From: a phage
DNA length: 64,000 nucleotides
Sequence record: PX246730.1
Strand: one strand, 5' to 3'
This document shows positions 2,113-57,332 of the stretch, piece by piece. The notes beneath the pieces were generated by a model that was given only the letters and a program-made list of their open reading frames with translations, searched no databases and was not told the origin of the DNA. The stretch's first letter is position 1. Every line of letters starts with the position of its first letter. Made by a program: the position numbers and the translations under genes.

Positions 2113-2186
2113 CTCTGTTTAGCTCAGCTTGGTAGAGCGTTCCGTTTGGGGCGGTAAGGCCGGAGGTTCAAGTCCTCCAACAGAGA
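2113..2186 (+). tRNA. tRNA-Pro(TGG)
   Basis: 7 bp acceptor CTCTGTT/AACAGAG, D-stem GCTC/GAGC, anticodon loop ttTGGgg, T-arm GGAGG-TTCAAGT-CCTCC, CCA encoded. Confidence 0.7.
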
Positions 2187-2196
2187 CCAAATTAAT

Positions 2197-2271
2197 GTTC
2201 CAGTAGACAAAATGGTATAGTCACCACTCTTTCAAAGTGGATATTTGAGGGTTCAAATCCCTTCTGGAACG
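2197..2271 (+). tRNA. tRNA-Glu(TTC)
   Basis: acceptor GTTCCAG/CTGGAAC, anticodon stem CCACT/AGTGG with loop ctTTCaa, T-loop TTCAAAT, CCA encoded. Confidence 0.7.
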
Positions 2272-2285
2272 CCAGTTTTGACAGA

Positions 2286-2352
2286 AGACCAATTGCAGCA
2301 AACTTAATCTTATTCATCTGAAGGTAAATCGGACAAAGAAGAGATTTGGTCT
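2286..2352 (+). repeat. spacer hairpin element copy a (CAGAAGACCAA ... TTGGTCTGG)
   Basis: inverted repeat AGACCAA/TTGGTCT flanking about 55 nt; conserved internal motif cagcaaaCTTAA; first of four paralogous copies. Confidence 0.6.
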
Positions 2353-2365
2353 GGTCATTAAGAAT

Positions 2366-2439
2366 TGCGGGTATAGAGAAAGGGCGTCTCACATGTCTCA
2401 TTAGCATGGTATCGGCAGGTTCGACTCCTGCACCCGCCT
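2366..2439 (+). tRNA. tRNA with CAT anticodon (Met, fMet or Ile2)
   Basis: acceptor pairs with ACCCGCC with 1:72 mismatch, D-stem GAGA/TCTC, anticodon stem CATGT/GCATG with loop ctCATta, T-arm GCAGG-TTCGACT-CCTGC. Confidence 0.55.
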
Positions 2440-2452
2440 CCAAATTTACAGA

Positions 2453-2511
2453 AGACCGTTTACAGCAATACTTATTAAATTTTTAGCGGAAAAAATTGAA
2501 AGATACGGTCT
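2453..2511 (+). repeat. spacer hairpin element copy b (AGACCGT ... ACGGTCT)
   Basis: same conserved 5' motif tttacagaagaccgtttacagcaa and 3' ggtctggtaat as copies a, c, d. Confidence 0.6.
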
Positions 2512-2526
2512 GGTAATACTAAACAT

Positions 2527-2600
2527 GGTTAGGAAGCACATAAGGTATGTGCGGTCGCCTGTTAAGCGAATGGCACAGGGTTCGAATCCCTGACTAACCG
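2527..2600 (+). tRNA. tRNA-Asn(GTT)
   Basis: acceptor GGTTAGG/ACTAACC (6 of 7 bp), anticodon loop ctGTTaa, T-arm CAGGG-TTCGAAT-CCCTG. Confidence 0.6.
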
Positions 2601-2611
2601 CAAAATTTAAA

Positions 2612-2698
2612 TGTGTCGTTATCCCGTAGATGGTAGCGGTGGGGACTGTAAATCCCTTGTCATTGAGACTCGGTAGGTTCGACTCCTACACGGCACAC
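2612..2698 (+). tRNA. tRNA-Tyr(GTA)
   Basis: acceptor TGTGTCG/CGGCACA, anticodon stem GGGGA/TCCCT with loop ctGTAaa, long variable arm, T-loop TTCGACT, CCA encoded. Confidence 0.7.
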
Positions 2699-2764
2699 CA
2701 ATTTTGAGAGGGCTATTTAGCCCCTCCCTTAAAGAGTTCTTACGAGTATTCTTTAAAGGAGCAG

Positions 2765-2833
2765 AAGACCAAATACAGCAAGTTACTTAAAATTTCAAGC
2801 CAATTTAATTTTGAAAAATTTAAAACTTGGTCT
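2765..2833 (+). repeat. spacer hairpin element copy c (AGACCAA ... TTGGTCT)
   Basis: conserved gcagaagaccaaatacagcaagttacttaa and cttggtctgg. Confidence 0.6.
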
Positions 2834-2852
2834 GGCTCAACAAATTTACAGA

Positions 2853-2978
2853 AGACCGTTTACAGCAAAACTTAAACAATCTATTTCTCTGGTAAAGAAA
2901 AGGCGAAGGTTCGATTCCTTCACTCGGCAGATGTCGAGTTGGTGTAATGGTAGCACTTAAGATGATAAACAACGGTCT
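2853..2978 (+). repeat. spacer hairpin element copy d, enclosing tRNA-like pieces
   Basis: inverted repeat AGACCGT (2853-2859) / ACGGTCT (2972-2978) flanks the permuted tRNA-Thr-like segment. Confidence 0.6.
2884..2957 (+). tRNA. tRNA-Thr(GGT)-like, apparently circularly permuted (3' two-thirds upstream of 5' third)
   Basis: 2884-2929: anticodon arm TTTCT-ctGGTaa-AGAAA, T-arm GAAGG-TTCGATT-CCTTC, 3' acceptor ACTCGGC plus discriminator; 2933-2957: 5' acceptor GTCGAGT (pairs 7 of 7 with ACTCGGC incl. one GU) plus complete D-arm GTGT-aatggta-GCAC. Confidence 0.35.
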
Positions 2979-3129
2979 GGTAATTATCTTTGTAGATAAG
3001 TTATTAAGCTTACCTGTGAGTATGCGACCACAAAGGGTGAAAGGGTAAATTCTAGATTTAAACCCAACAAGGCACATCGCTACAGACCTTAAGCAAGTCT
3101 GGGTAGCTTATCTACAAAGATAATTTAAT

Positions 3130-3202
3130 GGAAGTGTAGCAGAATGGTGATGCGGCAGACTTTTAATCTGACAGGCGATGGGTTCGAATCCCTCCACTTC
3201 TA
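3130..3202 (+). tRNA. tRNA-Lys(TTT) (probable)
   Basis: acceptor GGAAGTG/CACTTCT, anticodon loop ctTTTaa, T-loop TTCGAAT, CCA encoded; T-stem imperfect. Confidence 0.55.
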
Positions 3203-3209
3203 CCAATAT

Positions 3210-3283
3210 GGTTCAGTCGCAGATAAGGTAATGCAGGGGTCTCATAAGCCCTATGAATGTGGGTTCGATTCCCATCTGAACCT
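3210..3283 (+). tRNA. tRNA with CAT anticodon (Met, fMet or Ile2)
   Basis: perfect acceptor GGTTCAG/CTGAACC, anticodon stem GGGGT/GCCCT with loop ctCATaa, T-arm GTGGG-TTCGATT-CCCAT, CCA encoded. Confidence 0.65.
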
Positions 3284-3288
3284 CCAAT

Positions 3289-3361
3289 GCTGTGAAAGCA
3301 CATATGGATGTGCATTCGGCTGATAACCGAAAGGAAGAAGGTTCGAATCCTTCTCACAGTA
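3289..3361 (+). tRNA. tRNA-Ile(GAT)
   Basis: acceptor GCTGTGA/TCACAGT, D-stem GCAC/GTGC, anticodon stem TTCGG/CCGAA with loop ctGATaa, T-arm GAAGG-TTCGAAT-CCTTC, CCA encoded. Confidence 0.75.
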
Positions 3362-3379
3362 CCAATTTCAATAAAGTTG

Positions 3380-3408
3380 TTGACACTGAGATGTGACTAC
3401 TTTATAGT
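3380..3408 (+). promoter_or_regulatory. sigma70-like promoter (TTGACA-N17-TATAGT) inside tRNA cluster
   Basis: -35 TTGACA 3380-3385, -10 TATAGT 3403-3408. Confidence 0.55.
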
Positions 3409-3613
3409 AACCTTAGTTTTCGTTGCGTAGCGTCTATTTTGCAAATTTAAAATAAATGCAAACGACAATGTTTTTCTGGCAGTAGCTTGATAGGCTAAAC
3501 ACCAGTGAGGTCTTCCAATCCCTCATCAAAGAATTTGGCGTACTAGCCCACGGTATGATTAATAAGGTGGGCATCTTTAAGGGCTTTCTAAGAGAGTCTT
3601 TAAAGATTAATTA

Positions 3614-3692
3614 CGGGGCGTATCTCATCTGTCTTCTAAACAGACGTTAACCGAGTAAGTGGAGTATGCGGGTTCGAGTCCTGCCGCCTCGA
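3614..3692 (+). tRNA. tRNA-like element with TCT (Arg-type) anticodon loop, atypical D region
   Basis: acceptor CGGGGCG/CGCCTCG, perfect anticodon arm TCTGT-ctTCTaa-ACAGA, T-loop TTCGAGT, CCA encoded; only 7 nt between acceptor and anticodon stem, 22 nt before T-arm. Confidence 0.4.
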
Positions 3693-3838
3693 CCAATTTA
3701 GTTAGCAGATTACTTAGACGACCTAAGCGGGTCTTCCTGTAGGGAGGTGGTCTGTATCTCATGTTTTCCAGAACATGTAAATAATCTGAGAAGGGGCTTT
3801 ACAGTGTTGAGATAATACGGTAAGCTTCGAATTATAGT

Positions 3839-3918
3839 ATGGGACGATGTTAAGACTCTAAGGCATGAGCAACGGCTTCCAACACCGTTTCAAAGGGGTT
3901 CGACTCCTCCGTCCCATG
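3839..3918 (+). tRNA. tRNA, anticodon unresolved (possibly Trp CCA)
   Basis: perfect acceptor ATGGGAC/GTCCCAT, T-loop TTCGACT, CCA encoded; anticodon region ACGG-cttCCAaca-CCGT has a 9-nt loop. Confidence 0.45.
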
Positions 3919-3934
3919 CCAAAGTCTTATTAGG

Positions 3935-4022
3935 GGTAGGTAGCGGCTAATGGTAGCCAAACTGTCTTGAAAACAGTTGCCACTGTAGAGATACGGTGAG
4001 GGTTCGACTTCTTTACTTACCG
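3935..4022 (+). tRNA. tRNA-Ser(TGA)
   Basis: acceptor GGTAGGT/ACTTACC, anticodon arm ACTGT-ctTGAaa-ACAGT, long variable arm, T-loop TTCGACT. Confidence 0.7.
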
Positions 4023-4178
4023 CCTAATAAGATTTTAAAGCCAAGCTTCATTCGGATGTTGCTTTGGTATCCCTCGTGTTGTCGAACACACTAATAAAGC
4101 ACCTAGTAGGTGTCACGGAGAAGAGATAATATCAAGCTCTCCAAAGGTTCTAGTCACCGGATTAAACAAGACTATGCA

Positions 4179-4200
4179 AAGACCTTTTTAGGTCTTTTTA
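4179..4200 (+). terminator. hairpin plus T-run (possible intrinsic terminator or processing site)
   Basis: AAGACC-ttttta-GGTCTT followed by TTTA. Confidence 0.4.
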
Positions 4201-4278
4201 GAGGGCTTCTAAGGTTATTACAGCTTGTTGTGGAACCTTGTTGCTTAGGTTCTTAGAAGTTCTCTAAAAAGATTTAAT

Positions 4279-4353
4279 GGGAGATTGACGGTAATTGGTA
4301 AACCTATCTCGCTTAGAACGAGATGTTTGAGGGTTCGAATCCCTTGTCTCCTA
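4279..4353 (+). tRNA. tRNA-Leu(TAG), short variable loop
   Basis: acceptor GGGAGAT/GTCTCCT, anticodon arm ATCTCG-ctTAGaa-CGAGAT, T-arm GAGGG-TTCGAAT-CCCTT, CCA encoded. Confidence 0.55.
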
Positions 4354-4363
4354 CCAAATTAAT

Positions 4364-4436
4364 GCAGGTGTAGCAAAATGGTTATGCGGCTGACTCTTAA
4401 TCAGTAAGACGATGGGTTCAATTCCCTCCACCTGTA
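4364..4436 (+). tRNA. tRNA-Lys(CTT) (probable)
   Basis: acceptor GCAGGTG/CACCTGT, D-stem GCA/TGC, anticodon arm GCTGA-ctCTTaa-TCAGT, T-loop TTCAATT, CCA encoded. Confidence 0.6.
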
Positions 4437-4445
4437 CCAGATATT

Positions 4446-4518
4446 GGGGATGTAGTTTACATGGTTAAAACATAAGTTTTGCAAAATTAAGTACAGGGTT
4501 CAATTCCCTGCTTCTCCA
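4446..4518 (+). tRNA. tRNA-Ala(TGC)
   Basis: acceptor with G3:T70 wobble pair (Ala identity element), D-stem GTTT/AAAC, anticodon loop ttTGCaa, T-arm CAGGG-TTCAATT-CCCTG, CCA encoded. Confidence 0.65.
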
Positions 4519-4527
4519 CCAATTAGT

Positions 4528-4599
4528 GCATCCATAGTTTAAACGGGAAAATTACAGTCTTCCAAACTGAGGTTGAGGGTTCGATTCCCTCTGGATGCT
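4528..4599 (+). tRNA. tRNA-Gly(TCC)
   Basis: perfect acceptor GCATCCA/TGGATGC, anticodon arm CAGT-ctTCCaa-ACTG, T-arm GAGGG-TTCGATT-CCCTC, CCA encoded. Confidence 0.7.
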
Positions 4600-4608
4600 C
4601 CAAATAAT

Positions 4609-4682
4609 GCTGCTTTCGTATAATTGGCTATTACACATCCCTTGTAAGGATGGAAATGCAGGTTCGAGTCCTGTGAGCAGCA
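4609..4682 (+). tRNA. tRNA-Thr(TGT)
   Basis: acceptor GCTGCTT/GAGCAGC, anticodon arm CATCC-ctTGTaa-GGATG, T-arm GCAGG-TTCGAGT-CCTGT, CCA encoded. Confidence 0.75.
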
Positions 4683-4780
4683 CCAATTCAGAGGTCAAGT
4701 GAAAGACCGCTGGTGTCAACTGAAGACCGTAACAAATTCCACGGAGTTGAGTTAGCGGCACAACTTCAGACCTCTTTCAC

Positions 4781-4852
4781 ACTCGCTTAGTTTATATGGT
4801 AAAACACCACCCTTACAAGATGAAGAAAAAGGTTCAAGTCCTTTAGTGAGTA
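4781..4852 (+). tRNA. tRNA-Val(TAC) (tentative; weak anticodon stem)
   Basis: acceptor ACTCGCT/AGTGAGT, D-stem GTTT/AAAC, loop ctTACaa, perfect T-arm AAAGG-TTCAAGT-CCTTT, CCA encoded. Confidence 0.45.
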
Positions 4853-4856
4853 CCAT

Positions 4857-4931
4857 GTTCCAGTATCCCAATTGGCAGAGGATGCAAGCTCAAACCTTGT
4901 ACTAGTGACGGTTCGAATCCGTCTTGGAACA
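4857..4931 (+). tRNA. tRNA-Leu(CAA), short variable loop
   Basis: acceptor GTTCCAG/TTGGAAC, D-stem TCC/GGA with 11-nt loop, anticodon arm GCAAG-ctCAAac-CTTGT, T-arm GACGG-TTCGAAT-CCGTC, CCA encoded. Confidence 0.55.
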
Positions 4932-4939
4932 CCAATTTT

Positions 4940-5012
4940 GCAGGATTAGTTCAAATGGATAGAGCAACAGTCTACGAAGCTGTTAATAGGGGTTCGAATC
5001 CCTTATCCTGCG
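4940..5012 (+). tRNA. tRNA-Arg(ACG)
   Basis: perfect acceptor GCAGGAT/ATCCTGC, anticodon arm ACAGT-ctACGaa-GCTGT, T-arm TAGGG-TTCGAAT-CCCTT, CCA encoded. Confidence 0.75.
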
Positions 5013-5034
5013 CCAATTTAAAGAGGCTATTTAG

Positions 5035-5592
5035 ATGAGATATTTGAAGTATGCTTCATGGATTTTCTTAGCTTTGTTAGAGCCATTTGCAGCAATCTTA
5101 GCAGTAATTTTAGCACCCTTTGTGGTTCCATTCTACAGTGAAAAGAAAGGACACTTACCTTTTGGATTCAGATGGATGGAGACTTATGATAACCCAATTG
5201 ATGGTGACAAAGGCCACGTTGAGAGATGGGCTAAGATTAGAAAGATTGGTAAGCTCGGTGTTTATATGCAGAGAGTTGGATGGCTCTGGAGAAACAAAGC
5301 TTATAACTTCTCTTACCATGTGCTAGGAAGAGATGTAAAAGATGTTACTAAGTGGAAAGGTAATATCAACGTAAGTTCTAACCCTGAAGATAATCAGACA
5401 GGTTATCTCCTAATGTGGAACAGTAATGCTTGGGGATTATTCGCTTTTACCCCATCAATTAAAATCTTTGGTAAACAATTCTACTGGAGAATTTATGTTG
5501 GATGGAAACTTAAAAGTGTTGTCCCAGAAGAAAGAGCATTCTCAAGGGAAAGAGTTATGTTGGCATTCTTTATTCATCCACTAAGAAAGTAA
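5035..5592 (+). CDS. hypothetical membrane protein (185 aa) embedded in tRNA cluster
   Basis: ORF track; hydrophobic N-terminal segment (IFLALLEPFAAILAVILAPFVVPF); Trp/aromatic-rich. Confidence 0.5.
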   Translation: MRYLKYASWIFLALLEPFAAILAVILAPFVVPFYSEKKGHLPFGFRWMETYDNPIDGDKGHVERWAKIRKIGKLGVYMQRVGWLWRNKAYNFSYHVLGRDVKDVTKWKGNINVSSNPEDNQTGYLLMWNSNAWGLFAFTPSIKIFGKQFYWRIYVGWKLKSVVPEERAFSRERVMLAFFIHPLRK

Positions 5593-5600
5593 AGATTTAA

Positions 5601-5673
5601 AGGGGATTAGTTTACAAGGTTAAAACCTCGGTCTTTGAAATCGAAGAAGTTGGTTCAATTCCAACATCCCCCA
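5601..5673 (+). tRNA. tRNA-Gln(TTG)
   Basis: acceptor AGGGGAT/ATCCCCC (1:72 mismatch), D-stem GTTT/AAAC, anticodon arm TCGGT-ctTTGaa-ATCGA, T-arm GTTGG-TTCAATT-CCAAC, CCA encoded. Confidence 0.6.
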
Positions 5674-5678
5674 CCAAT

Positions 5679-5754
5679 GCTCCATTACTCCAATTGGCAG
5701 AGAGGCCAGACTTAAAATCTGTGTTATGTATCGGTTCGAATCCGATATGGAGTA
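5679..5754 (+). tRNA. tRNA-Leu(TAA), short variable loop
   Basis: acceptor GCTCCAT/ATGGAGT, D-arm paralogous to the CAA tRNA (caattggcaga), loop ctTAAaa, T-arm ATCGG-TTCGAAT-CCGAT, CCA encoded. Confidence 0.55.
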
Positions 5755-5762
5755 CCAAATTT

Positions 5763-5835
5763 AGCGGTATAGCATAACTGGCAATGCAGCAGTCTCTGAA
5801 GCTGTCCTATTAAGGTTCAAATCCTTATGCCGCTG
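5763..5835 (+). tRNA. tRNA-Gln(CTG)
   Basis: acceptor AGCGGTA/TGCCGCT, anticodon arm GCAGT-ctCTGaa-GCTGT, T-arm TAAGG-TTCAAAT-CCTTA, CCA encoded. Confidence 0.6.
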
Positions 5836-5869
5836 CCACTTCTAAGGGTTCTTACGAGAGTCCTTAAAT

Positions 5870-5942
5870 GTGGCCTTATCATAAAAGGTAATGACCCATG
5901 CTGTGAACATGGTCTATACGGGTTCAAATCCCGTAGGTCACC
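5870..5942 (+). tRNA. tRNA-His(GTG)
   Basis: acceptor GTGGCCT/AGGTCAC, anticodon arm CCATG-ctGTGaa-CATGG, T-arm ACGGG-TTCAAAT-CCCGT, CCA encoded. Confidence 0.75.
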
Positions 5943-5950
5943 CCAATTTA

Positions 5951-6024
5951 TAGTCCAAGTAGCTTATATGGTAAAGCGCGTGTCTGAAAAACATGAGAAG
6001 AGGGTTCAAATCCCACTGGACTAC
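5951..6024 (+). tRNA. tRNA-Phe(GAA)
   Basis: acceptor TAGTCCA/TGGACTA, anticodon arm CGTGT-ctGAAaa-ACATG, T-loop TTCAAAT. Confidence 0.7.
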
Positions 6025-6042
6025 CAATTTCAAAGGTGCTTA

Positions 6043-6777
6043 ATGAAAGAGATGACAGAACAAGGTAAGGAGATTTTTAATCTCTTAAAAACCGGTAGAG
6101 GGTTTTCTAATCCCCTTATTACTGGTGCAGCAGTTCTCGGTGGAACCGTAGCTGCCTCTACATCACTTGTAAGCTCTATTAGCTCTGTAACAGACCCTAC
6201 AATAAAAGATAAGCTTGTTGCTGCTGGGCTTACAACAGTCCTCCTAAACAGCTTTACAACAAGCCTGACAAGCACTACAGCAACTACTAAGACCCTGACA
6301 GACTACGGTCAAAAGTCTATTGATGAGTTTTCATCACGTATGCAGGTAGCAAAGGGATACTCCAATGTTATGGGTGCAGCAGGAGAACAAGTTGGTTGTA
6401 CACCATTCAGTGGTATTATGGGTGTTGCTACAGAGTATGGTCAAAAAGCTATTGACATGATGAACAGTACACTAGATAGTGTTAATGGTGTGTTAAGTGA
6501 CTTACAAGATGCTATTGATAAGGGTCTTGATACTGTTTCTGATTTAGCTAACCAAGCTGTTAGTAAGATTAATGAAGGTATCTCGAAGATTACAGCTTAT
6601 GCAGATGAAGTTGTGCAGATGATTGAAGAAGAAGCTGCCCTTATTGCAGAGTACCTTAAAACGAATATCAATGGGTTCTTAGCAGGTATCTTACCAGACT
6701 GGTTTGATGATGCCTGTAAAACTGGTGTAATTGACACTATTGCAACACCAGAAATGAAGAGCGCATTACAGAAATAA
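6043..6777 (+). CDS. hypothetical Ser/Thr-rich protein (244 aa)
   Basis: ORF 5827-6777 trimmed to ATG at 6043 because upstream part overlaps tRNA-His/Phe; no motif recognised. Confidence 0.5.
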   Translation: MKEMTEQGKEIFNLLKTGRGFSNPLITGAAVLGGTVAASTSLVSSISSVTDPTIKDKLVAAGLTTVLLNSFTTSLTSTTATTKTLTDYGQKSIDEFSSRMQVAKGYSNVMGAAGEQVGCTPFSGIMGVATEYGQKAIDMMNSTLDSVNGVLSDLQDAIDKGLDTVSDLANQAVSKINEGISKITAYADEVVQMIEEEAALIAEYLKTNINGFLAGILPDWFDDACKTGVIDTIATPEMKSALQK

Positions 6778-6778
6778 T

Positions 6779-6868
6779 GGAAGATTAACCCTAAAAGGTA
6801 AGGGAGCAGTTTGCTAAACTGCCAGTAGCTGAGAAATCGGTGTACCAGTTCAAGTCTGGTATCTTCCT
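6779..6868 (+). tRNA. tRNA-Ser(GCT)
   Basis: perfect acceptor GGAAGAT/ATCTTCC, perfect anticodon arm GCAGT-ttGCTaa-ACTGC, long variable arm, T-arm ACCAG-TTCAAGT-CTGGT, CCA encoded. Confidence 0.8.
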
Positions 6869-6875
6869 CCAATTT

Positions 6876-6948
6876 GAATCCGTGACAGAAATGGATATGT
6901 GCCTGTCTGCAAAACAGGTTTATAAGGGTTCGAGTCCCTTCGGATTCT
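6876..6948 (+). tRNA. tRNA-Cys(GCA)
   Basis: perfect acceptor GAATCCG/CGGATTC, perfect anticodon arm CCTGT-ctGCAaa-ACAGG, T-arm AAGGG-TTCGAGT-CCCTT, CCA encoded. Confidence 0.8.
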
Positions 6949-38208: not shown

Positions 38209-38724
38209 TCAACTTAGTTTTGCAAACTCTCCGTGAAGTTTAATAGCAGCTTCACAGTAAGCTTTATGGGCTTCTTCTTCTGTTGTGTATGTCCCTATAT
38301 GTATAGTCTTGCCATTATGGTTAATCTGGGCTTTCCACTTACCAGACTTACTTCTACTTGTACCTTTTAAGTTTTTTGATGTTCTAGGTTGTCTCCTATT
38401 AGACATATTCTGTTCTTTTGTGGCCTCTCTTAGATTGTCCCAAGCGTTATTCAAACCATCTCCATCTTTGTGGTCAATTTGCTTATCAGGCCACTTGCCT
38501 GTCATCCAGAACCAAGCAATTCGGTGATTGCCTGTCCTGTATCCTAAAATCTGTGTGTGCATATACACACCAGACCTTGTGCGCTTAATTGCTCCGGCTT
38601 GGCTTCCAATAACCACCCTACTACTGTGTGGAGGTCTGCCAATCCATGTTAAGACCCCTGTTTCGGGGTCATAATCTAACCAAGATTTTAACTGTTCATG
38701 TGTGAATCCACAATCTCTCATCAA
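38209..38724 (-). CDS. HNH endonuclease with AP2 DNA-binding domain (free-standing homing endonuclease-like)
   Basis: HNH signature IDHKDGDGLNNAWDNLREATKEQN; AP2-like SKSGKWKAQINHNGKTIHIGTYTTEEEAHKAYCEAAIKLHGEFA; 4-nt overlap with polymerase exon 2. Confidence 0.7.
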   Translation of the reverse strand: MMRDCGFTHEQLKSWLDYDPETGVLTWIGRPPHSSRVVIGSQAGAIKRTRSGVYMHTQILGYRTGNHRIAWFWMTGKWPDKQIDHKDGDGLNNAWDNLREATKEQNMSNRRQPRTSKNLKGTSRSKSGKWKAQINHNGKTIHIGTYTTEEEAHKAYCEAAIKLHGEFAKLS

Positions 38725-39285
38725 TGTACCTCATACCACGATTTACCAACCTTTGCTGTACCAGTTACAAGTGTTTCTTTCCTCAAACCTAAGTTTTTTG
38801 AAGCTTGTCCATACATCCAGTCAGCAATTGCTTTCATATCCTGTGTCATACCCTCTGGACATTCCCAACTATTTTCATCGTGATATGCCAGAAGTAACCT
38901 TGCTCCGATAGCTGGTTTTCGAGCATTCAGTTTTGTCAGGCCATCTTCACAGGCTTTTCTTGCTGCTAGGTTGATGGCCTCATTCTGAATCTGGGCTTCC
39001 GAACTCATCAAGAGGTAGTTCAGTAGTTTATGTGGAGATTTGCACCATATCCATGCTCCAGCGACCCTGATATAACCACCTTTAGCAATTGAAGAATTCT
39101 TCCCAAAAACCTCTTCCAGAGCCTTTTTAGACGCCTTAAAATCGGCTTCTAAGCTATCAAGTAACTTCTTAATCTTTGGCAGACGCATATAGTAAGTTTG
39201 TTTAGTCAATGCACCTTCTTCCGTAGATGATGCTTTGATAGTTTTTGCAAACTTCTCATCACCTGCACCAAACAATACATCTGGT
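38721..39285 (-). CDS. DNA polymerase (family A) exon 2
   Basis: FGAGDEK (motif B continuation) and YHDE motif C; frame open upstream only to 39284. Confidence 0.75.
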
Positions 39286-39553
39286 CAATACACTCGCAAG
39301 GTGTACCAGTTCTCTTATGAACTTCTCCGCATTTCTACGGAGTGTCGGACTATATCACGTAGTAGTAATACTACCGTTGCACTTGGGAATGGTCATTAGC
39401 TTACCACCCTACTCTACTCAGTTCATACATTAAGTATGCTTTTCGATAGTCTCTGAACGTTCCTCTTAAGAGGCTTCGCTGCTGATTACCATATCTTTAC
39501 AGACTTAGGCTTCCAGCAATTCACAACGTTTTACATGCGCCACTGACGCATAA
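39286..39553 (-). mobile_element. group I intron in DNA polymerase gene (no internal ORF)
   Basis: on minus strand, in order: P-like AATTGCTGGAAG (about 39510-39521), Q-like AATCAGCAGC (39478-39487), R GTTCAGAGACTA (39447-39459), S GATATAGTCC (39346-39356); 5' exon ends in U, intron ends in G. Confidence 0.7.
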
Positions 39554-41718
39554 ATGCCATTTTTGGCTTTCTTACGACCTTTTGTAATCTCGTGGAGAAG
39601 TTCCTCATCCTGTGTCTCCCTACAACGAACAATGTCTTCTTCCTTGTTCAGACCAAAGTAAATACTGTTCAGTGTATGCGCATCAGTCCCTGTGTAGACT
39701 TCATAGAGGTCGTTCTCAGCATCATAACGAAGATACTTGTCAGTTTCTGGATTAAGATACTTATCGAGATGCTTGCAATAGTATCTACCGTCATCTTGCT
39801 TAGTGAACTCTACTGACTCTTTACCCTCAGTTACTGCTTTGGTGAACTCTTTATCACCCATAAAGTTACAAAGGAGAACTAGCTGTGCAGAGTTCTGGTC
39901 AACTGAAACGATATTAGTCCCTTCCTCGCAAATCCACACCTCCCTCATAGGCGCTCCATAGACAGCAGCACCAGACGGTACGTTTACAATACCATATTGT
40001 GTCATACGTCCAGTTGAAGTACCAAACACCATTGCACCAGCACTAAGGCGACCATCAGGACGAATCTGGTTCAACCAACCTTTTTCATCATCCTTTGAGT
40101 TCTCAATAGTTCTACGTCGGTGCATCAAAGTATAGTACTTAGCAATCTTCTGTCCAAGCTCACCTTCAATCGTGTCATAAGATGACTCAGTAAGCTTTGG
40201 TGAAGTACGGATTAAACAAGGCTCAAGCAAATCTGTGTATTTTTTCACAGACCAGTTATGCTCAATGTACTGTACACCTTCATGCTCAACATAGCTCAAA
40301 CCACACCGCTCAACCATTTCCTGCCACTTAGGATGTTTTGTAATCATCTTTTTATTGTCTTTGAAACGACAAACCTTAACAGGGCGACCGTCTGAGTCTT
40401 TCTTGTAGTTCCAGTCATCTGGAATCCAACCAACTGATTTCAAGTAGTCTTTAACAACTGCTACCTGAGTCATACGAGAAACTTCAAACTCAATTGGTGT
40501 ATATGGTGCATCAATCAAACCTGTGTAGCGACTTGACTCAAGTTCAAAGTGGTTAACAACATGACTGTTATAGTACTTCACGGTTTTGACTGTTTTTACT
40601 GGCTTCCAGTCTTTGCATTTCTTACCAATCTTTGCGTTCAAATCATTGCAAATTGCACGAGCATCCTTCATTGCTACAAAGCCTTCCTTGTACTCTTCAC
40701 CAGTTACAGAGTTGGTTGGTGTATAGCAATTTCTCTTTTCAATGTTAAAAATCTTTGTAGTTGGCTTACCAAATGGTTTGATTTCGTATGTCTGCATCTC
40801 ACCGTTACGTACCTGTTGACGATACTTTGTCTTAGGATACTTGGTAATTCTTTTCAGTCCATCTGCATGACCAAACGTTTCAACATACTCATTCCAAGCT
40901 TTTGCAAACTCTTCTCCAGTCACTTTACCTTTGGTCTTAATAGTTGGAGGAAGGTGTGGTTCAACCTCTGAAGCAAGCTCATTAGTCAACTTGTCAAGTT
41001 CCTTTACATGGAACTCCATAAGCTCCTTATCAGCTTTCCAACCATTGATAGCCTGTTGACTCATCCAGAAAGATGTTTCTTTAGCTCGCATGTAGGTTTC
41101 ATAAGTGTCTATGCCACACTTCTTAAGCTTGAGATACTCGTTATCAAGTGCCCGTTTAGTTTTGGCGTTAATACGGATATCTTCTACAACACGAGTGAAG
41201 ATTTCTGCATTCCACACACCCCAATGTTCAATCTCTGGTTTACGAACACCAACACGAGCACCCCATGCAGCCAAACCATGAGCACCTTTATAGCCCTTTG
41301 GAGTTGGTCTATCCATCCACTGAACACGAGACTGAATAAGAGAATCCTGAAAGAAATTACTCCACGGCTTACACTTTGGATTATCAAAGTTCCATAAATC
41401 AGGTGCAATGTGATTGAAAACCCACCAGTCATAACCGAGACCATTATGGATGCAAAGGCGTTTTGCCTTTAACGCAAATTCAACACCTTCACGTAAGCCG
41501 CCCTTGATGTACTTGGTATACTTGTGACCGAGGATAGGCTCATCTGTAAAGACCCATACAGGTGGCTCTTCATCGTCAGATTTATAGTCTGCGAAAGCCA
41601 TTACGTGAACTTTAGTGAACTCAAGGAGTAAACCATCAGTTTCTGTATCACCAACCAAATGTAAGTTTTTAAAATCTACGTTTTCCATTTTCACTCCCTC
41701 TAAAATCATTAACCACAT
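39554..41718 (-). CDS. DNA polymerase (family A) exon 1, with 3'-5' exonuclease domain
   Basis: Exo I motif GDTETDGL; polymerase motif A region VDQNSAQLVLL; motif B start RKKAKNGI; ORF continues into intron to stop at 39505. Confidence 0.75.
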
Positions 41719-54871: not shown

Positions 54872-56068
54872 ATGAACAAAGTACAGATTATTAAAAAGAA
54901 TGGCTCACTCGAAGAACCTGATATCAAAAAAGTTTTAGTAGCAGTCACAAAGTCAGCTAACAGAGTTGGTTATAAAGAGCTTCCACCAGATGTTACTCAA
55001 GCTCTTGAGTCAGCATTTATGAGGATTCTGGTAAAGTCCACTAAGCAGAATAATTTGCTAATTTCTGTAAATGATATTCACAGTATTGTTGAAGGTGCTT
55101 TGGCAGAAGTCAATCACGAGATTTATGAGTCTTACTCAACATACAGAAATTATCGTAAAGAGGTTGCTCAAAATTGGGATGAGCTTTACCAAAAGACTAA
55201 AGACACACTCTTCTTAGGTGACCGTGAAAACGCTAACTTTGACAGTAGTTTAATTTCTACAAAAGGCTCAATTATTCGTGGTTACCTGACTAAAGAAATC
55301 TTTAAACAGTACCATTTAACACCAGAGGAACTCGAATCCATTGAAAAAGGGTTTATCTACATCCATGACTTAAGAGACCTAATTTTTGGTGGGATTAACT
55401 GTTGCCTGTTTGACATTGGTAAAGTACTGAAAGGTGGCTTTGAAATGTCTGGCATCGAATACTGTGAACCAAAATCTGTACTGTCAGCCTTACAAGTTAT
55501 TGGTGATGTAGTTCTTTCAGCAACTGCACAGCAATTTGGTGGCTTTACTTTAGCAGAGATTGATAAGGTACTTGTACCGTATGCTAAGAAGTCTCTACGC
55601 TATCATGCTGAGAAAGCAGCATCTTATGGTATTCCTAAAGAACATTACCACAATTATGTCATGGAGCAGCTACAGATTGAACTGACTCAAGGTTTCCAGT
55701 CACTTGAAATGAAACTAAACACTGTGCCTTGTAGTCGTGGGGATTTTGCATTCACAACTTTGACATTCGGGTTGCTTGACTCAGATATGTCCAATGAAGA
55801 TAACCGACTGCAATATATGATTGCAAGTACTCTCCTAGATGTTCGTATGAATGGACAAGGTAAGAGCAAGAAGCCTGTTGTATTCCCTAAACTGGTTTAT
55901 ATTTATGACCAGAAGAGACACGATGAGAATATCTGTCAAGGCCACCTGTACAGTAAAGCTATTGAGTGTTGCTCTAAAGCTATGTATCCAGATTTCTTAA
56001 GTGTATCTGGTCATGGTGCTGTAGCAGAGGCTTTTGAGCGTTCTGGTAAGGTTATTTCACCGATGGGT
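54872..56068 (+). CDS. nrdD: anaerobic ribonucleotide reductase exon 1
   Basis: N-terminal ATP-cone-like region; ORF ends SPMG then in-frame stop inside intron. Confidence 0.75.
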
Positions 56069-56384
56069 TAACAAGCTCTATAGCTCATCTAAAACGTGCC
56101 TAAACAGGGAAACTCTACAGATGTAGACAATCCTGTGCTAAATGATGTATGATGTAAGAAACTATACAACATAGGAGTCTTACATGCCAAATAACTTCGA
56201 ATACGAGTTTGAATACATCTAAATGCCGAACGACTAACCGTGATGAATGTAGCGGTGTAGGGTCAAGCGACTCGAAATGGTACGCTACTTAGAAATAAGT
56301 AGAAGATATAGTCTGGACTTACTGGCGACAGTAAGCAGCTTGAATAAAGCGGGGTAAGCTTAGCGAACTTACCTGAACAACAAG
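56069..56384 (+). mobile_element. group I intron in nrdD (316 nt, no internal ORF)
   Basis: P-like CAGGGAAA (56105-56112), Q-like AATCCTGTGC (56129-56138), R-like CGAACGACTAAC (56227-56238), S AAGATATAGTC (56303-56313); 5' exon ends in T, intron ends in G; splicing gives in-frame SPMG|CRAFLSP. Confidence 0.7.
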
Positions 56385-57332
56385 TGTAGAGCATTTTTAT
56401 CACCATACCATAACGAATATGGTGAAGAGTTTTATGTAGGTCGTGCTAACATTGGTGCTGTATCTTTGAACTTGCCAATGATTTACCAGTATTCTAAAGA
56501 TAATGGTTTAGATTTCTGGAAAGAGCTTGATAAGTACCTAGAGATGATTCGCAGCTTCCATAAGAAACGCTACGAAATGATTGCTAATATGCCAGCAAGT
56601 TCTAACCCTCTTGCATTCACACAAGGTGGTCTGTACAAAGGGAATAAGAAACCTACTGACAAGGTTGGTTGGGATATCGTGAAGTCCTTCACAGCTTCTT
56701 TTGGGGTTACTGCGCTTGATGAGTTGTCTGTTCTTGCTGAAGGTAAACGACTTCATGAAGCTGGAAGCTGTAGTTTTGCATACGATGTTCTGGAATACAT
56801 CAACATGAAAACTGAAGAGTTTAAAAACGAAGACGGCTTCTTATATGCAGTCTATGGCACTCCAGCAGAATCACTTTGTGGAACTCAGCTAAAACAGTTC
56901 AGAGATATGTTTGGCGTTATCAAAGGTGTTTCTGACAAGGAATATTTTACAAACAGTTTCCATATGAATGTTGCAGCAAACATCTCACCATTTGAGAAGC
57001 AGGACTTAGAAGAACCATTCTTCCATATCTGTAGAGGTGGCAGAATCCAGTATGTAAGGGTAGCTAACCCAGAAAACTTAACAGCACTTAAAAGTTGTAT
57101 TACAAGAGGGATGTTGAAAGGTTTTTATCAGGGACTTAACTTTGACTTAGCAATCTGTGAACATTGTGGTAACAGACCAAAGGCTGATGTTGAAGAATGT
57201 GAGGTTTGTCATTCACATGATATCTCTGTGATTAACAGGGTGTGTGGGTACTTGTCATTCACAAAAATTAAAGGTCAGTCTCGAATGAATGACGCTAAGA
57301 TGGCAGAAATTAAGGATAGGATTTCTATGTAA
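56385..57332 (+). CDS. nrdD: anaerobic ribonucleotide reductase exon 2
   Basis: C-terminal Zn site CEHCGN...CEVCHSHD and glycyl-radical motif RVCGYL; combined length 714 aa. Confidence 0.75.
   Translation, partial: CRAFLSPYHNEYGEEFYVGRANIGAVSLNLPMIYQYSKDNGLDFWKELDKYLEMIRSFHKKRYEMIANMPASSNPLAFTQGGLYKGNKKPTDKVGWDIVKSFTASFGVTALDELSVLAEGKRLHEAGSCSFAYDVLEYINMKTEEFKNEDGFLYAVYGTPAESLCGTQLKQFRDMFGVIKGVSDKEYFTNSFHMNVAANISPFEKQDLEEPFFHICRGGRIQYVRVANPENLTALKSCITRGMLKGFYQGLNFDLAICEHCGNRPKADVEECEVCHSHDISVINRVCGYLSFTKIKGQSRMNDAKMAEIKDRISM

Follow-up and report, generated by a model that had tools for sequence, protein, structure and literature searches.

A group I intron without its endonuclease gene interrupts nrdD, the anaerobic ribonucleotide reductase gene of a Felixounavirus phage

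The 316 nt at positions 56069-56384 of the window (the whole 64,000-nt stretch of phage DNA analysed here, sequence record PX246730.1) very probably constitute a functional, splicing-competent group I intron of the T4 td/nrdD-like family, located in the nrdD gene of a Felixounavirus (Felix O1-like myophage). The ribozyme membership of the insert, its structure, its exact boundaries, the deletion that it has undergone and its polymorphism in the phage population were observed directly. The window copy is an endonuclease-less derivative of a mobile intron and is unable to home alone; the label 'mobile' fits the intron lineage, not this copy. It is an ordinary T4-type phage group I intron, already annotated in a sister phage, and involves no new mechanism. 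The main value of the finding lies in annotation and teaching. The exact junction corrects the annotation of most of the ~95 intron-carrying felixounavirus records, which give two genes or a pseudogene. The genus provides a natural allele series (intronless, intron with endonuclease, two independent endonuclease deletions) which, together with an exon 2 haplotype, is convenient for following the cycle of homing-endonuclease gain, decay and loss in therapeutic-type phages.

The interrupted nrdD gene and the intron boundaries

Over the nrdD region (54872-57332), identity to many Salmonella and Escherichia Felixounavirus phages is 96-96.5%, and the gene order (nrdB, glutaredoxin, small membrane protein, nrdD, small ORFs, nrdG) matches that of Felixounavirus relatives. 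The gene and its insert are divided as follows.

54872..56068, + strand: nrdD exon 1, 399 codons, ATP-cone and the N-terminal portion of the NrdD barrel (from the ORF list, the wV8 register and Pfam)
56069..56384, + strand: group I intron, 316 nt, T4 td-like (IA2-type), no P2 (from Rfam RF00028, intronless alleles and our own covariance model)
56385..57332, + strand: nrdD exon 2, 315 codons and stop, opening at the catalytic Cys codon (CRAFLSPY...)

The ORF containing exon 1 (54872-56071) closes with CCG ATG GGT (..SPMG) followed by TAA at 56069-71, the last exon base being T. Exon 2 starts with TGT AGA GCA (CRA), and the frame from 56385 (CRAFLSPYHNEYGEEFYVGRANIG...) is open to the stop at 57332. 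Comparison with intronless alleles fixes the boundaries to within 1 nt, with a T at both 56069 and 56385; 56069-56384 was chosen because group I introns must end in G. The intron opens with an in-frame UAA and closes with ...AACAAG, with the omega-G at 56384. The first-pass annotation had exon 1 ending in T and the intron ending in G, as is the case at T56068 and G56384.

Excision of the 316 nt restores an intact nrdD. Joining 54872-56068 to 56385-57332 yields a 2145-nt ORF of 714 residues, the in-frame product that had been predicted. The spliced gene is equal in length and register to the uninterrupted nrdD of phage wV8 and aligns with it without gaps (1987/2145 nt identical); the two exons are contiguous at the proposed junction, so that the orthologue alignment named earlier as a check agrees with the splice. 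In translation, 694 of 715 positions are identical including the stop (97% amino-acid identity). The nrdD genes of Felix O1, AYO145A and DaR-2019a are uninterrupted at the same junction, as in wV8, giving four intronless alleles.

Pfam NRDD (PF13597) matches the spliced protein without a break over residues 119-712 (E = 8e-114), in addition to the N-terminal ATP-cone. Exon 2 holds the C-terminal zinc site (CxxC...CxxC) and the glycyl-radical motif (RVCGY) that had been reported for it. With an NRDD domain across the junction, the catalytic Cys, the Zn-ribbon cysteines and RVCGY, the product is a class III ribonucleotide reductase. Class III reductase is required only anaerobically, and most sister phages simply have nrdD without an intron; to call nrdD an essential gene, as was done at first, is too strong.

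Across the junction the spliced NrdD aligns to solved NrdD structures, with PMGCR(S/A)FL conserved at this point; PMGCR aligns to PDB entry 9d3x, and T4 chain 1h78 was likewise matched. In the T4-type NrdD, assembled to 605 residues, the Cys of PMGCR is position 290 and the Gly of RxCGY is position 580. These are reportedly the thiyl-radical cysteine and the glycyl-radical glycine of T4 NrdD (Logan et al. 1999). By this alignment the intron is inserted directly 5' of the codon for the catalytic thiyl-radical cysteine (the equivalent of T4 Cys290), between the Gly and Cys of SPMG/CR. An invariant codon of this kind is a typical target for homing elements, as with the Twort nrdE introns (PMC3653736).

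In Rfam searches, RF00028 matched 56011-56335 with 53.7 bits, only 3.7 bits above the gathering score of 50 (E = 8e-11 for the whole window, 7.5e-13 for a local search). The limits of the match do not coincide with the true ends of the intron: the generic model places its P1/P2 wrongly, within exon 1, and stops at P9, which leaves P9.1 and P9.2 uncovered. Together with the exact excision relative to wV8, this match bears out the group I intron in nrdD that had been proposed at 56069-56384. The allele of phage RPN213 scored 60.4 bits. For the pSJ21, T4-type JB75 and F96 loci no RF00028 match reached the gathering score; ORF insertions disrupt the model there, and the result is uninformative for these loci. 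Our own covariance model (R1) matches 56069-56384 end to end.

A second intron, in the polymerase gene, had also been claimed, and Rfam located it on the opposite strand. It was recorded with the following features outside nrdD.

39325-39608, - strand: second group I intron, Rfam 64.2 bits, splitting the family-A DNA polymerase gene
39505-41718 and 38721-39275, - strand: ORFs flanking the polymerase intron, the downstream exon matching Pfam DNA_pol_A positions 218-381
38209-38724, - strand: free-standing 171-aa ORF immediately 3' of the polymerase gene, domains HNH_3 and AP2
2113-6948, + strand: array of 22 tRNA genes (Rfam), expected for a Felix O1-like genome

The ORF at 38209-38724 is a candidate homing endonuclease outside any intron. 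The polymerase intron is polymorphic among felixounaviruses, with intronless, ORF-less and endonuclease-containing alleles.

Ribozyme structure and covariation

The helices and conserved elements of the nrdD intron, all on the + strand, are listed below.

56076..56088: internal guide sequence, contiguous, all 6 + 7 pairs standard
56095-100 / 56279-84: P3, with compensatory changes
56102-12: element P, AAACAGGGAAA
56104-09 / 56131-36: P4, with compensatory changes
56114-18 / 56123-27: P5 hairpin, with compensatory changes
56129-38: element Q, AAUCCUGUGC
56137-38 / 56225-26: P6, found in the minimum-energy fold
56144-50 / 56213-19: P6a, all seven pairs changed on both sides; stem and loop occupy 56144..56219
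56228-36: element R, GAACGACUA
56232-36 / 56309-13: P7, the guanosine-binding helix (GACUA / UAGUC), invariant in eight sequences
56238-41 / 56252-55: P7.1
56260-64 / 56269-73: P7.2
56285-91 / 56296-302: P8 with a GAAA loop, 6/7 pairs compensatory
56303-13: element S, AAGAUAUAGUC
56318-24 / 56329-35: P9 with a GCGA tetraloop, 4/7 pairs compensatory
56338-41 / 56347-50: P9.1
56352-58 / 56368-74: P9.2, 4/7 pairs compensatory

All pairs in these helices are standard. The guide sequence accounts for both splice sites. In P1, the six bases that close exon 1, AUGGGU (56063-68), pair with GCUCAU (56083-88) over 6 bp, with a U.G pair at the cleavage site (U56068.G56083); in P10, the seven bases that open exon 2, UGUAGAG (56385-91), pair over 7 bp with CUCUAUA (56076-82). 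The intron ends at G56384. P2 is absent from the window intron. P3-P4-P5-P6 and P7-P3'-P8-P7'-P9 make up the core, which contains the P3/P7 pseudoknot. The conserved elements P, Q, R and S, noted at first only as similar to such elements, were found in canonical order. The 3' tail that follows the helices is GAACAACAAG. P7.1 (56238-55) and P7.2 (56260-73) lie between P7 and P3', and the sequence is similar to that of T4 introns; both features agree with subgroup IA2. The P7.1/P7.2 layout is that of the T4 td, nrdB and nrdD introns, for which IA2 is the subgroup label (Michel & Westhof 1990).

An unconstrained minimum-energy fold of the 316 nt recovers P3, P4, P5, P6, P6a, P7.1, P7.2, P8, P9 and P9.2. 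Its energy is -81.1 kcal/mol (z = -3.15 relative to shuffles), and none of 100 shuffles was as stable. The hexamer AACAAG was observed at both intron ends (56070-75 and 56379-84). In the minimum-energy fold, CAAGCU (56072-77) can pair with AGCUUG (56337-42) as an alternative to P9.1.

For covariation analysis, a covariance model was built from six introns with the ORF loop trimmed and was then searched against the fetched loci. The plain MAFFT alignment of these six introns was out of register in P6a, P7.2, P8 and P9.1 and was used as the seed for the covariance model only. Pair counts were taken from a covariance-model re-alignment of eight full-length ORF-less introns: those of the window, RPN213, contigs L013 and L016, Aeromonas phages 4L372D and phiA047, the T4-type nrdD core and contig L009 (record labelled Campylobacter phage A138), of which only the 3' half would align. 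Standard pairs fill 96.5% of the pair cells in the eight introns; sliding the 3' partners by 1-3 columns lowers this to 34-41%. The percentage paired is inflated by the fitting of the alignment to the model structure, but the margin is large all the same. Compensatory changes, i.e. changes on both sides, are present in 34 of the 65 pairs and are abundant in P3, P6a, P8, P9 and P9.2. The observed covariation score was not reached in any of 500 shuffles.

Splicing would proceed by the usual group I steps. In the pre-mRNA, the guide (56076-88) would form P1 with the 3' end of exon 1, placing the U.G pair at the cleavage site, and P10 with the 5' end of exon 2. A free guanosine bound in P7 would attack after U56068, and the freed exon 1 would then attack after the terminal G56384, joining ...AUGGGU to UGUAGAG...; the predicted ligated junction is ...CCGAUGGGU/UGUAGAGCA.... 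Spliced mRNA would be translated to the 714-residue NrdD, and translation of unspliced RNA would terminate at the UAA that opens the intron. We infer splicing itself from conservation, and the homing and co-conversion discussed below are likewise inferred.

Loss of the endonuclease, distribution and alternative explanations

In many sister phages the intron is 742 nt long and carries a 154-aa HNH ORF (Pfam HNH_3) in the P6a loop. This full-length protein is an I-HmuI-like HNH homing endonuclease. Alignment with the pSJ21 allele gives the window intron as the 742-nt form minus 426 nt (142 codons), removed in frame. A remnant was left in place.

56173..56222, + strand: endonuclease remnant, comprising a Shine-Dalgarno sequence AGGAG (56173-77), an ATG (56184) and a 12-codon stub, MPNNFEYEFEYI followed by a stop (56184-56222)

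The sequence retained around the deletion comprises AGGAG and ATG CCA AA on the 5' side and T AAC TTC GAA TAC GAG TTT GAA TAC ATC TAA on the 3' side; the last codons of the stub double as the 3' strand of P6a. Parsimony favours deletion as the direction of change, because an empty intron would carry no ribosome-binding site, start codon or homologous C-terminal codons. The window copy has the Shine-Dalgarno sequence and the 12-codon stub only, and no intact endonuclease. In RPN213, a different deletion of 450 nt has taken the start region too and leaves an intron of 292 nt. As the two deletions differ, the endonuclease gene was lost at least twice, and in both cases the ribozyme was spared. 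In the window, the in-frame loss of 426 nt from the HNH ORF in the P6a loop left the ribozyme intact and would have removed autonomous homing.

A hairpin of 8 bp is predicted around the start codon of the stub (-9.8 kcal/mol), and a weaker one (-5.7) in the alleles that contain the ORF. Hairpins that sequester the ribosome-binding site are described for the T4 intron endonucleases (PMC2988022), and the hairpin predicted here bears a resemblance to them.

Among felixounaviruses, the intron occurs at the same site in Bas63 JohannRWettstein (MZ501086.1) and in Salmonella phages pSJ21, UAB_Phi87 and Mushroom, the ribozyme parts being 96-99% identical; these copies differ from that of the window (316 nt) in being 742 nt long and in encoding the 154-aa HNH endonuclease. 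The deletion form of 316 nt is common to REP5, SEP1, D1-2 and EC6 among others. The junction region is present in about 213-232 records of the phage collection. In 94 records the intron is covered to 80% or more with an identity of at least 95%, the RPN213 variant coming in addition, and 61 related phage records contain the complete HNH ORF. Counted as records, which were not dereplicated, ~40% carry the intron, about a third of these are without the endonuclease and ~60% are intronless (including Felix O1 and wV8).

Exon sequences flanking the junction were compared over 150 nt on each side in four intronless and about 17 intron-carrying alleles, the latter partly redundant. The last 150 nt of exon 1 show no intron-linked differences (4 versus 17 alleles). 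Exon 2 contains a block of intron-linked differences within +3..+54, with fixed differences at +9, +12, +18 and +54 (4 versus 17 alleles); in these first ~54 nt (56385-56438) the substitutions are silent or near-silent. One intron-linked variant, +3 T, strengthens P10. An asymmetric exon 2 haplotype is the expected trace of co-conversion, and could have arisen in homing from a diverged donor; the asymmetry suggests that the endonuclease cuts downstream of the insertion site. Alternatively, the haplotype looks like target-site divergence.

Parts of this picture exist in earlier records. The record of BASEL phage Bas63 (MZ501086.1) gives nrdD as a joined CDS that skips the intron with its endonuclease; '1 intron' is listed for this phage in the BASEL S5 table. 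A split nrdD with a homing endonuclease was reported for UAB_Phi87 (PMC4837284), endonuclease indels have been mentioned (PMC3728262), and a 2023 paper contains a bare mention of 'two introns' in SPJ41 (PMC9951933). The Felix O1 genome paper reports no introns in the type phage of the genus (PMC3185647), which is true for Felix O1 itself, not for the genus. In the literature on Felixounavirus, no experimental splicing study or description of the RNA structure was found. Intron-carrying felixounavirus nrdD genes (loci L001, L002, L004, L007 and L008) are usually annotated as two CDSs or as a non-coding misc_feature. In the two-CDS form, the second CDS is started at an internal TTG or ATG and so leaves out the catalytic Cys, a systematic misannotation. 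Four records under other host names, GU169904.1 (Staphylococcus phage SA1) and MG065664, MG065684 and MG065690 (Campylobacter phages A132, A138 and A135), contain Felixounavirus-like nrdD (93-98%) or Vequintavirinae sequence and are probably contaminated or mislabelled assemblies.

The database annotations would fit a splicing-dead relic, in which nrdD is a pseudogene or a two-piece gene that is tolerated as the class Ia reductase (nrdAB, just upstream) suffices aerobically. Most GenBank records indeed show two CDSs or a misc_feature 'similar to' nrdD, and the decay of the endonuclease and the lack of experimental splicing data in our literature search point in the same direction, but the elements of the catalytic core are all intact and the intron is at least 95% conserved over about 94 records. 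Its helices carry compensatory change, not decay, and two independent deletions took the ORF and spared the ribozyme. Both exons have kept an open frame in register, with 97% identity to intact genes, and in a two-piece gene a start at TTG 56466, the first possible one in exon 2, would lose the catalytic Cys400 together with 27 residues. We consider a dead relic very improbable. The chance that the insert is of another kind, i.e. an intein, a group II intron or a translational bypass element, is negligible: the interruption of a conserved gene speaks for these elements and nothing more does, whereas the first codon of the insert is TAA, no in-frame ORF spans it, RF00028 is the sole Rfam match in 55900-56500 even at E <= 1, and 316 nt with a full P3-P9 core are incompatible with a group II intron or a gene-60-type 50-nt bypass. 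Intein, bypass and other RNA families were ruled out by the opening stop codon and the RF00028-only Rfam result.

A splicing-competent intron might still be mobile as a passenger, spreading in trans at mixed infection when the HNH endonuclease of a sister phage, or a free-standing endonuclease, cuts an intronless nrdD. This would extend the main explanation and does not contradict it. The same 316-nt allele is present in many otherwise diverged felixounaviruses (loci L002, L007, L008, L022 and L023), alleles with the endonuclease and alleles without the intron circulate side by side in the same hosts, and trans-homing is documented in T4, where mobE mobilizes the defective nrdB intron (PMC2988022). 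Vertical descent with ordinary recombination could explain the distribution equally well, however, and passenger mobility is a possibility that we place on the unlikely side. A further proposal, which we consider more doubtful still, is that the endonuclease-less intron is kept by selection as immunity or as a conditional switch and is not en route to loss. Two independent HNH deletions spared every ribozyme helix, and the 316-nt allele is widespread. The disrupted homing site could give nrdD cheap immunity against the HNH endonuclease of a co-infecting felixounavirus. As a conditional switch, the intron could couple the making of the oxygen-sensitive reductase to translation or growth state, with a possible part for the ribosome-binding site, hairpin and 12-codon stub that it has retained.

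Comparison with introns of T4 and other phages

The nrdD intron of the window was compared with related introns in other phage genes, at the same site in distant nrdD genes and in T4. Introns with related cores interrupt RecT genes (contigs L015, L025 and L029), a terminase large-subunit gene (L016) and a terminase gene (L034, Aeromonas phage 4L372D). The 24-nt P7-P7.1 module is identical in L015, L025, L029 and L016 and differs by one base in L034. As these RecT and terminase genes belong to unrelated viral contigs, one ribozyme scaffold has colonized many conserved phage genes. The introns of Twort nrdE, SPbeta nrdE/F and T4 nrdB likewise occupy conserved, functionally critical codons of nucleotide-metabolism genes (PMC3653736), but in other genes, at other sites and in other intron subfamilies.

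Introns before the same Cys codon were found in Vibrio phage F96 (OZ196197.1; ..YMG/CRS..) and in IMG/VR contig 3300010279_000001 (L013; ..SMG/CRS..), the latter a 137-kb phage with an ORF-less 251-nt intron. In both, P1 (AUGGGU/GCUCAU) is identical to that of the window intron and the P7-P7.1 module is identical over 24 nt, whereas the host NrdD proteins share only about 29% identity and the helices contain many compensatory changes. The HNH protein of the F96 intron is 39% identical to the felixounavirus HNH protein; the P10 guide of F96 differs, being altered to fit its own exon 2 (GAUUGGCA/UGCCGAUC, 8 pairs). The same-site introns support lateral spread of intron and endonuclease into the conserved nrdD site. 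The nrdD gene of F96 (L006, 51-4185) is split by its annotation into five CDS pieces, between which lie two HNH ORFs (828-1757 and 2528-3034). Its second interruption is the intron at the Cys codon of the window, and a further endonuclease-containing interruption is located upstream.

The parallel with the T4 nrdD intron, drawn in the first-pass annotation, holds in part. The host gene is the same, the ribozyme cores are homologous and the 5' region lacks P2 in both: the T4-type nrdD core scores 186.7 bits with our own model and is 87.5% identical over about 105 nt. The insertion site and the endonuclease are different. The T4-type intron (JB75 locus) interrupts the Tyr codon of ...AYE/YEVNTL, corresponding to window residues ~279/280, and the window intron lies at 399/400, so that the sites are ~120 codons apart, with that of T4 upstream. 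Orthology with the T4 nrdD (sunY) intron insertion was ruled out by this tblastn mapping. The T4 nrdD intron encodes I-TevII, a GIY-YIG endonuclease, in an ORF 3' of the core (PMC2988022); the relatives of the window intron encode an HNH endonuclease, and the window copy none.

The T4 td intron (group IA2, I-TevI) is about 71% identical over ~160 nt of the 3' half (window intron positions 152-311). It resembles the window intron in having P7.1/P7.2, P9.1/P9.2 and a GNRA loop on P9, as well as an ORF in P6a and a UAA immediately after the 5' splice site (PMC2988022). The start region of the endonuclease is within a predicted hairpin in each case (of the remnant in the window, of the full ORF in its relatives). 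The td intron differs from that of the window in its host gene, which encodes thymidylate synthase, in the presence of a P2 helix and in its endonuclease, which is of the GIY-YIG and not the HNH type.
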